A DNA stretch of 64,000 nt from a virus. Below the pieces are notes generated by a model that did no database searches, had not been told where the DNA came from, and saw only the letters and a list, made by a program, of their open reading frames with translations. The stretch lies in the IMG/VR virus record IMGVR_UViG_3300048910_000074, one strand, 5' to 3'. Below, in pieces: positions 25,388-26,802 of this stretch. The position numbers and the translations under genes are program-made. The first letter of the stretch is position 1; every line of letters starts with the position of its first letter.

Positions 25388-26802
25388 TGCCGGTGGCCAA
25401 TCCCAATATGCACACCCGGTGAGAGATCGCCACCGGCATCTAATTTTCCATCCACGAAAGGACGGTCACCGTGACCGCACAATTCACAGACTCCCCTCGG
25501 GCCATCCCAGGTGCGAAGCCCAGTTTTGGTTCGCCTGAGGGGACTCAAGCCACCGAGACCGGCCAAGGTCGCCCTGGTGCCCATATAACATCCGCCGGTC
25601 TCGGTTCAAACTCCCTCGTTGACCAGGTCCACGGCGATGCCCAAACAACATCTGTCAGCGAGGGCTCAGCCCCCCAGGGCAGCCATAATACGGCTGATGC
25701 CCATTCGACCAGCGCCGCTCTGGGGCCTATCCTCTGGTCTCCCACTCTCGGACTCGCCGCCGAGGTGGTGGACGACCTGGAGAAGGTTCGTATCGCCAAT
25801 GAGAACCGTCTGCGCCAGCTTACGAGGTCGGAGGTTGACGCCGACGGCGAAGAGCGGGGTTTCGGGTTGAGCCTGGATCACCCTGACGTCAAGCGGCTGG
25901 ATGCCCTGGTCAAGGACCTCCAGGCTGCTGACGACCGTGCGGTGAAGAACCTGCAGAAGACAATGCGCGACCACCCGCTATGGGCGGCTTGGGGCAAGGA
26001 CGCAAATGGGGTTGGCGAGAAGCAGCTGGCTCGCCTGCTGGCTGCGATCGGTGATCCGTACTGGCACGATCATCGCAACACCCCACGCACCGTGTCGGAG
26101 TTGTGGGCCTACGCGGGATACCGCGTCATGAACTTCCCTGCTGGCCATGGTTCCGCTGATGCCCATCGCGCCAGTGCCAGCAGGGACCAAACTTCTCCCA
26201 TCAGCCATCCTGATTGTGATACCCAAGTGGGGCTCGCTGGTGGGGGGCAGACTTCCGACGGCCATACTCCCAACGATGCCGTCGGAACCAACGTCCACCC
26301 CGCCGACCATATTTCAGCCGGTGCCCATCGACAGAACGTCGGCGGGGTGGCCCAACGTCGTCAGAAGGGGCAGAAGTCGAACTGGTCGGCTACAGCCAAG
26401 ATGAGGGCCTACCTCATCGCTGAAAGCTGTGTGAAGCGACCCAAAGGTACTCGGTATCGAGATGTGTACGACCGAGGTCGGGAGAAGTATGACGGCGCTA
26501 TGCATGCGGCACCTTGCCAGCAGTGCGCGGGCAAGGGCAAGTCTGCCGAAGCTGCCATTGGCGCGCCTCTGAGACCAGGACATCAGCACGCCCGTGCGTT
26601 GCGCTTGGTGGCCAAGGAGGTGCTGAAAGATTTGTGGGTAGCCAGCAAGGAGATTCACGAAAAGCTGCAGCAGCAGGAGGCCAATCGCTCAGCGAAGCCC
26701 AGAAATGAATCGCCCCTCGCTGCTGCTTGAGAGGTCCGACAAAGGGTGAGACCAGAGAAGTTCTGAAACCCAGAGTAGATACGTCCTGACCTTTGTCGGA
26801 CC
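25388..26802 (+). repeat. Stem-loop TIGR-like guide array, 11 units: 25388-25438, 25492-25543, 25552-25605, 25613-25664, 25672-25725, 26135-26186, 26194-26247, 26254-26286 (truncated), 26295-26350, 26667-26726, 26733-26802
   Basis: Each unit is a unique 8-13 bp inverted-repeat stem enclosing CCA-N9-(T/C)G-N3-CCCA-N9-(T/C)G, with fixed spacing and variable 9-mers; the first unit has a 10-nt loop ending CCCG. Confidence 0.9.
25471..26730 (+). CDS. Nop/IS110 Tnp-domain protein without RuvC or HNH (TasA-like RNA-guided DNA-binding protein)
   Basis: GAAAGGA RBS + GTG; coiled coil (DDLEKVRIANENRLRQL..), NGVGEKQLARLLAAIGDP, TVSELWAYAGY, RRQKGQKSNWSATAKMRAYLIAES, YRDVYDRGREKY, HARALRLVAKEVLKDLW follow the Transposase_20/Nop order; no DEDD motif. 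Confidence 0.85.
   Translation: MTAQFTDSPRAIPGAKPSFGSPEGTQATETGQGRPGAHITSAGLGSNSLVDQVHGDAQTTSVSEGSAPQGSHNTADAHSTSAALGPILWSPTLGLAAEVVDDLEKVRIANENRLRQLTRSEVDADGEERGFGLSLDHPDVKRLDALVKDLQAADDRAVKNLQKTMRDHPLWAAWGKDANGVGEKQLARLLAAIGDPYWHDHRNTPRTVSELWAYAGYRVMNFPAGHGSADAHRASASRDQTSPISHPDCDTQVGLAGGGQTSDGHTPNDAVGTNVHPADHISAGAHRQNVGGVAQRRQKGQKSNWSATAKMRAYLIAESCVKRPKGTRYRDVYDRGREKYDGAMHAAPCQQCAGKGKSAEAAIGAPLRPGHQHARALRLVAKEVLKDLWVASKEIHEKLQQQEANRSAKPRNESPLAAA

Follow-up and report, generated by a model that had tools for sequence, protein, structure and literature searches.

The DNA considered here is a stretch of 64,000 nucleotides (nt) from a virus, IMG/VR record IMGVR_UViG_3300048910_000074, which is referred to throughout, at its full length, as ‘the window’. 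Its source is an uncultivated phage, a distant relative of the cluster C mycobacteriophages. On the plus strand, between positions 25388 and 26802, the window carries an array of ten full hairpin units and one half unit, arranged around and within a single gene for a TIGR-associated protein, TasA. Each full unit is laid out as a variable stem, CCA, nine nucleotides (spacer A), YG, a loop of 3-5 nt, CC(C)A, nine nucleotides (spacer B), YG and the returning stem. In published TIGR systems, CCA is termed box C and UG box D, and the spacers between them are 9 nt long (Faure et al. 2025, PMC12045711). The units, which we regard as putative tigRNA genes, and the gene that contains most of them are as follows.

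25388 to 25438, plus strand: tigRNA unit 1, upstream of the tasA start; spacer A ATCCCAATA, spacer B GTGAGAGAT; its second box C (C') reads CCG, and its loop has 5 nt.
25471 to 26730, plus strand: tasA, encoding 419 amino acids (aa), a TIGR-associated protein that has a Nop domain and lacks a nuclease domain; the gene contains units 2-10, in frame.
25492 to 25543, plus strand: tigRNA unit 2; A TCCCAGGTG, B GTTTTGGTT.
25552 to 25605, plus strand: tigRNA unit 3; A AGGTCGCCC, B TATAACATC.
25613 to 25664, plus strand: tigRNA unit 4; A GGTCCACGG, B AACAACATC; the one unit whose 18-bp composite finds a perfect match among phage genomes.
25672 to 25725, plus strand: tigRNA unit 5; A TAATACGGC, B TTCGACCAG.
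26135 to 26186, plus strand: tigRNA unit 6, the first unit of the internal TasA insertion; A TGGTTCCGC, B TCGCGCCAG.
26192 to 26250, plus strand: tigRNA unit 7; A TCCTGATTG, B AGTGGGGCT.
26253 to 26287, plus strand: half unit 8, with a 10-bp stem and spacer A only, TACTCCCAA.
26295 to 26350, plus strand: tigRNA unit 9; A TATTTCAGC, B TCGACAGAA.
26667 to 26726, plus strand: tigRNA unit 10, overlapping the last tasA codons; A ATCGCTCAG, B GAAATGAAT.
26734 to 26801, plus strand: tigRNA unit 11, directly after the stop codon of tasA; its outer stem is long (12 bp); A GAGAAGTTC, B GAGTAGATA.

An earlier note on this DNA had listed the same spacers, and all ten A/B pairs, together with the unit that has spacer A alone, are present exactly as it gave them. 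Its reading of the units as dual-spacer guides, with targets that were not known, is right; the anatomy of the array, the membership of its protein in the Tas family and a controlled target search are each described below.

A detector for the core of the unit (CCA-N9-YG-N(2-6)-CC[AG]-N9-YG), run on both strands of the window, returns 38 occurrences of this loose motif. Contiguous flanking stems of 9-12 bp accompany eight of the ten array copies, as against stems of no more than 6 bp elsewhere in the window; units 10 and 11 are low on this contiguous-stem measure, and their stems are visible in folds and in the alignment of the units. In that ten-unit alignment CCA, the G of both D boxes and the CCC of the second box C are invariant, and the boxes as a whole are intact in 10 of the 11 units. 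An 11-bp stem closes each core, with a sequence that varies from one unit to the next: across the ten units every one of the 11 pairs is changed on both sides, and 90.9% of cells remain paired. None of 500 shuffles reaches the value of the array, and slid controls pair at 37-56%. Because the covariation of the stems exceeds all of these shuffles and slid controls, the array hairpins are structured RNAs under selection and not chance palindromes. Half unit 8 is without box C', spacer B and box D', and is 18 nt short of the 60-nt period of its neighbors; the reading frame is therefore kept. At the 5' base of the stem of units 1, 2, 4, 6, 7 and 8 stands AACTTC or AACTCC (‘AACTYC’, a CUU/CUC motif), which is missing or altered in the others; a 2026 preprint on stem-loop TIGR systems describes a CUU motif at the stem base as marking processing sites. 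A scan with Rfam gave no match in the array (its sole match being a tRNA upstream), and a scan of promoters and terminators gave nothing beyond shuffles.

The protein encoded around these hairpins is recognizably a Tas protein. It matches the NCBIfam model NF052498 (TIGR_Tas_endo, ‘TIGR-Tas system RNA-guided endonuclease’) with a score of 216.3 bits, where the cut-off is 100, and a phmmer search of the Protein Data Bank (PDB) retrieves TasR (9mty_A, E 7.1e-11) and TasH (E 2.6e-4); its identity to the solved Tas proteins is about 20%. When its AlphaFold model is compared with the PDB by Foldseek, the top 11 matches are all TasR or TasH (E 2e-6), followed at lower ranks by the IS621 and ISCro4 bridge recombinases (E 0.2-0.7), whose likeness is confined to the Nop-like part, then by Nop5 and Nop56/58 (E at least 1) and Prp31. 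A Pfam scan of the protein finds no RuvC domain, no HNH domain, no PF01548 and no PF02371, and the phmmer match to TaTasR (9mty_A) begins at chain residue 145, leaving the N-terminal RuvC part of that protein uncovered. Because it has neither a RuvC nor an HNH domain, the protein belongs to the TasA class.

The AlphaFold2 model of TasA is divided in a way that follows the positions of the units. Confidence (pLDDT) is above 90 at residues 85-222 and 298-410, including two long helices at residues 91-166, and falls below 50 at residues 1-81 and 223-297, both of which are also predicted to be disordered. These two low-confidence stretches are the ones encoded by the units (residues 1-81 by units 2-5, and residues 223-297 by units 6-9), and the second of them is an insertion between what correspond to residues 215 and 216 of TaTasR. 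In an alignment of 25 relatives, ‘GH...DA[HQ]’ peptide repeats, which are translated box C elements, occur in variable number at the same two places of TasA.

The literature of 2025-26 describes the stem-loop TIGR-TasA kind and its intragenic guides (Faure et al. 2025; Xu et al. 2026, 10.64898/2026.09.09.750476; Guan et al. 2026, 10.64898/2026.08.11.744272), and the units of this kind are found 5' of tas, 3' of it or inside it, in disordered regions where the frame is left unbroken (Xu et al. 2026). Since the intragenic units, the CCA and UG boxes, the 9-nt spacers and, in six units, the stem-base motif agree with the accounts of Xu et al. 2026 and Faure et al. 2025, the locus is a member of this known kind, and an ordinary and well-formed one.

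The way in which such an array would work can be drawn from its published relatives, from which processing, dimer binding, the dual-strand 9+9 geometry and repression are all carried over here by analogy. Under the rule published for TIGR systems, spacer A pairs with one target strand, and spacer B with the neighboring segment of the opposite strand, opening 9+9 bp in one continuous bubble; TasR cleavage leaves 8-nt 3' overhangs under a ‘C-5’ rule, and box C is located at the unwinding junctions at both ends of the bubble. From those overhangs and the placement of box C, the 18-bp site on one target strand would read 5'-spacer A followed by the reverse complement of spacer B-3'. The earlier note had proposed this composite along with the reverse order, in agreement with the published opposite-strand rule. 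The eleven units would thus be stem-loop tigRNA genes of a TIGR-TasA system; a TasA dimer would bind the tigRNA, guide A would pair on one DNA strand, and guide B on the 9 nt next to it in the opposite strand. TasA is published to act as a repressor, and in E. coli a chromosomal gene can be repressed by TasA or TasR that has been redirected to it. Since the present TasA is without a nuclease domain, the outcome expected at a site is binding and blockage (repression), and not cleavage. The natural targets probably lie in DNA beyond the sets searched here, most likely in mobile elements or hosts of the rhizosphere community.

Much of what can be said about the guides comes from comparison with related loci. 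The same detector, applied to 25 related actinobacterial loci, finds about 120 units on the tasA strand and 6 on the opposite strand. A related array is carried by the mycobacteriophage Tripl3t (cluster A, Fromanvirus), in which five units occupy the gap upstream of a 236-aa tasA, 3.3 kb from the immunity repressor; comparable five-unit arrays, likewise upstream of a 236-aa tasA and within a few kb of the immunity repressor, are present in four other cluster A phages (Tripl3t, L033:2150-2460; Pari, Pinto, Gompeii16 and Marsha, L046-L049:340-700). Across the five phages the spacers are 35.4% identical, which is near random, while the scaffold is 86.6% identical and tasA is 99.5, 99.7 and 94% identical at the three codon positions. 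Two Kitasatospora loci (L007:4460-4640 and L012:4585-4765) give a similar picture within coding sequence: spacers differ at 51% of positions, stems at 17% and four-fold sites at 25%. Of two intragenic units that stand side by side in this pair, one has 17 of its 18 spacer positions unaltered, along with a compensatory change in the stem, and its neighbor has 10 of 18 spacer positions changed inside a nearly identical stem. On these alignments the guides change faster than silent sites do, and the scaffold is conserved, a pattern that speaks against decay of the array and against host targets that are conserved, and that fits variable targets such as other mobile elements. No statement of such faster-than-silent turnover was found in the TIGR papers cited here, and it may already be known.

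The composition of the spacers, which the earlier note had described as AT-rich and had taken as a possible sign of promoter-like or foreign targets, is best read against the same relatives. The low GC content itself is real: spacers average 48.9% GC (54% for A and 43% for B) against 61.6% for the window, lower than 20,000 of 20,000 random samples. The suggested reading is not supported, because the trait is family-wide. The spacers have a lower GC content than the locus in 23 of the 25 related loci, by a mean of 9.5 points (Wilcoxon P 2.6e-6), and across 117 units of relatives (L002-L033) the A and B spacers share one position profile, with about 65% A/T at position 1 and about 70-75% G/C at positions 3 and 6. 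AT-richness therefore does not look like a sign of promoter-like or foreign targets in this phage in particular, and the symmetric profile points instead to a constraint imposed by a symmetric ribonucleoprotein or by DNA melting.

The earlier note had also remarked on 3' ends shared by neighboring B spacers, and had taken them as a hint of duplication and divergence. The shared ends are there to be seen. Units 3-9 stand in one reading phase with a 60-nt (20-codon) period, and the B spacers of the adjacent units 3 and 4 are alike at 7 of 9 positions, the only pair to stand out; the A spacers of units 5, 6 and 9 are alike at 5-6 of 9. The period and the pair fit an in-frame tandem duplication followed by divergence, whereas overall spacer-to-spacer similarity is not above that of shuffles (P 0.1-0.3), and such a history is plausible and weakly supported.

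A search for composite sites, compared with controls, had been proposed in the earlier note; it was carried out and shows no enrichment in the window, in phage genomes, in IMG/VR or in some 250 Mycobacteriaceae genomes. The reverse order (the reverse complement of B followed by A) was searched as well. Within the window, both geometries with gaps of 0-2 and up to 4 mismatches gave no site with up to 2 mismatches; with 3 mismatches there were 4 sites, as compared with 6.2 expected from mispaired A/B controls. Same-strand arrangements in the window (A+B and B+A, gaps of 0-6) gave none. These counts bear first on the proposal that the guides regulate the phage's own genes, from sites in the part of its genome beyond the window. 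Regulation of the viral life cycle has been named as a possible role for TIGR systems (Xu et al. 2026), and roughly 100 kb of the presumed phage genome lies outside the window; yet the window, which includes an accessory region with repeated promoter cassettes, has none of these close sites. When the composites of the related Tripl3t array were compared with the complete 53.6-kb genome of that phage, no real self-site was found, the sole match at 2 mismatches being the stem and spacer A of its own unit 5. Self-regulation of this kind is accordingly regarded as unlikely. A search with 131 units of related arrays against 370 kb of related loci was also negative.

A second proposal is that the guides silence chromosomal genes of the host during infection, as the published repression of an E. 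coli gene by redirected Tas proteins would allow; the genomes searched may not include the right host. Ten composites, each compared by BLAST with 251 Mycobacteriaceae genomes, gave no 18/18 match in the true composite window of the query, as against two in chimeric windows. Unit 1 had no match in 101 Mycobacteriaceae genomes. Unit 4, searched with up to 1 mismatch in 191 such genomes, gave four matches, all of which represent one orthologous coding site (...SNIPWT..., 17/18 bases) and hence one event, as against one match for a reversed control pattern. Twenty composites from five prophage-like related loci likewise had no perfect site in the genomes of their own hosts, and conserved host genes are a poor explanation for the rapid turnover of spacers among near-identical phages that share a host. 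Silencing of host genes seems, on these counts, improbable.

The largest collection searched held 50,697 phage genomes (2.3 Gb), against which concatenated composites were compared in six blastn runs, with an E-value limit that passes perfect 18-mers. It yielded one perfect 18-mer in the primary geometry, for unit 4 (GGTCCACGGGATGTTGTT), in the related Gordonia phages SheckWes and CherryonLim, and no perfect match in the alternative geometry. It might be supposed that unit 4 truly targets SheckWes-like Gordonia phages, in a form of competition between phages, given that all 18 bases agree and that the match falls among actinobacteriophages, the relevant subset of the collection. The expectation by chance in 2.3 Gb is about 0.07 perfect matches per 18-mer, however, and hence about 1.3 for 20 composites, and control 18-mers that straddle the junctions of the query also gave perfect phage matches in comparable numbers. 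The site (SheckWes 38344-38361) takes in the start codon region of a MazG-like gene and the stop of a kinase gene, inside a minus-strand operon rather than at a promoter; IMG/VR does not contain it, and no other unit matches anywhere in the SheckWes genome at 2 mismatches or fewer. The match is a weak lead, and a genuine targeting relationship is very unlikely. Exact scans of IMG/VR with seven composites found eight contigs, all of 37-44% GC and not related to actinobacteria, with no contig matched by two units, and these are low-GC chance matches. Twelve composites from the five cluster A phages were also without a perfect site in the phage collection, which holds many mycobacteriophage genomes.

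The earlier note had held that a lack of enrichment would argue for RNA targets or for a decayed array, and the search did indeed find no DNA target in any set, unit 8 is half lost and unit 1 carries the variant CCG as box C'; nevertheless, an array that is decayed or acts on RNA, with spacers that no longer guide or never guided DNA binding, is scarcely credible in view of the covariation of every stem pair, the boxes that are invariant in the alignment and intact in all units but one, the well-conserved Tas protein, the single position-specific profile shared by both spacers in relatives and the inactivity of TasR on RNA substrates (Faure et al. 2025, PMC12045711).

We return to the view that the units are genes for stem-loop tigRNAs within a TIGR-TasA system, with dual 9-nt DNA guides whose natural targets lie outside the searched DNA, to which we assign a probability of roughly 0.85. 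The hairpin anatomy, the covariation of the stems, the Tas membership and the absence of sites in the searched sets were all observed directly in this analysis. Several considerations weigh on the other side. No target was found, and the guide function is presumed from membership in the family. The sequencing runs that carry this DNA are all of metagenome DNA and none of RNA, and the expression and processing of the tigRNAs are predictions. The search for self-targets covers about 40% of the presumed phage genome (64 kb of 155-165 kb); the database-wide searches detect perfect 18-mers only, and the BLAST comparison with Mycobacteriaceae scored the three best candidates per genome and was not exhaustive.

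The contrast between a nearly fixed scaffold and replaced guides suggests one further, tentative proposal. Guide segments may be exchanged in place, much faster than the neighboring tasA changes at synonymous positions, by a dedicated diversification process or by exchange of cassettes, and this might be the missing ‘adaptation’ step of TIGR systems, with the present array, whose guides are embedded in the gene of its own effector, as one of its products; we hold this to be possible, and somewhat doubtful.

The setting of the array is that of a large, cluster-C-like actinobacteriophage. What the window has in common with Myrna and other cluster C mycobacteriophages is limited to a few genes, at 74-79% nucleotide identity. 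The sequencing runs in which its DNA is found are root metagenomes, several of them at 100% identity, and a comparison of population variants found 0 differences among the other root metagenomes that carry the sequence. One neighboring gene deserves mention:

24875 to 25381, plus strand: upstream gene encoding 168 aa, phrog_4604 (PHROG match E 3.5e-26), with no Pfam family.

In 16 of 26 related loci (tblastn; loci L002-L012, L018, L020, L022, L024, L025 and L033) a homolog of this gene, of 150-170 aa, stands directly 5' of the array or tasA and in the same orientation; one of these homologs is gene 74 of Tripl3t. The AlphaFold2 model of the protein is helical (pLDDT 84), and its comparison with the PDB gave no fold match. 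Judged from this conservation of gene order, the phrog_4604 protein looks like a conserved neighbor or partner of this TasA clade. No mention of the 150-170-aa upstream gene was found in the TIGR papers cited. Further upstream, just before the Tas operon, Rfam matches a tRNA at 24776-24848 (40 bits) that ARAGORN does not call; ARAGORN places a tRNA with anticodon CTA elsewhere in the window, at 49157-49228.

What TIGR systems target in nature is acknowledged to be an open question (Faure et al. 2025; Xu et al. 2026). To this question the present array adds ten well-defined guide pairs and a controlled negative, in that none of the pairs is accounted for by the 64 kb of the phage's own DNA, by phages with sequenced genomes or by the likely host genomes sampled. 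The comparison among cluster A phages is the more useful lead, since it offers cultured hosts, complete genomes and dozens of near-identical relatives in which the guides are nearly all different. Those phages provide a practical system for establishing what TasA guides bind and how new guides arise, and the turnover of their spacers bears on the question of how TIGR spacers originate.

Among known systems, the closest counterparts are the stem-loop TIGR-TasA loci (PlTasA, from a Peromyscus gut contig, and BlTasA of Bifidobacterium longum), with which the present locus shares a protein composed of a Nop domain and a coiled coil with no nuclease, a variable palindromic stem around the pattern CCA-N9-YG ... 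CCA-N9-YG with 9-nt guides, a placement of units 5' of, inside and 3' of the tas frame in disordered insertions, and, in six of its units, a CUU-like motif at the stem base. It differs from those described in its carrier, a large cluster-C-like actinobacteriophage of root metagenomes, and in the conserved 150-170-aa gene upstream of it in the actinobacterial clade. With the dual-repeat systems TasR and TasH (TaTasR, 9mty; SpTasH, 21kl and 9w03) it has in common a homologous Nop domain, the CCA of box C, the UG of box D and two tandem spacers; unlike them, it is without a RuvC or HNH domain, without conserved edge and loop repeats and without a fixed 36-nt unit, and its stems vary from unit to unit. 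The IS110/IS621 bridge-RNA recombinases resemble it in the related fold of an RNA-binding domain (Foldseek E 0.2-0.7) and in the use of two guide loops per RNA, and relatives of this TasA are annotated as ‘transposase’ (phrog_4285); here, in contrast, no RuvC-like or Tnp catalytic domain and no element ends were detected, and many small hairpins take the place of one bridge RNA. Finally, as in CRISPR arrays, a constant scaffold alternates with hypervariable guides that differ between close relatives, although the present array has no direct repeats, cas genes or PAM and no known adaptation machinery, and carries two 9-nt guides in each unit.

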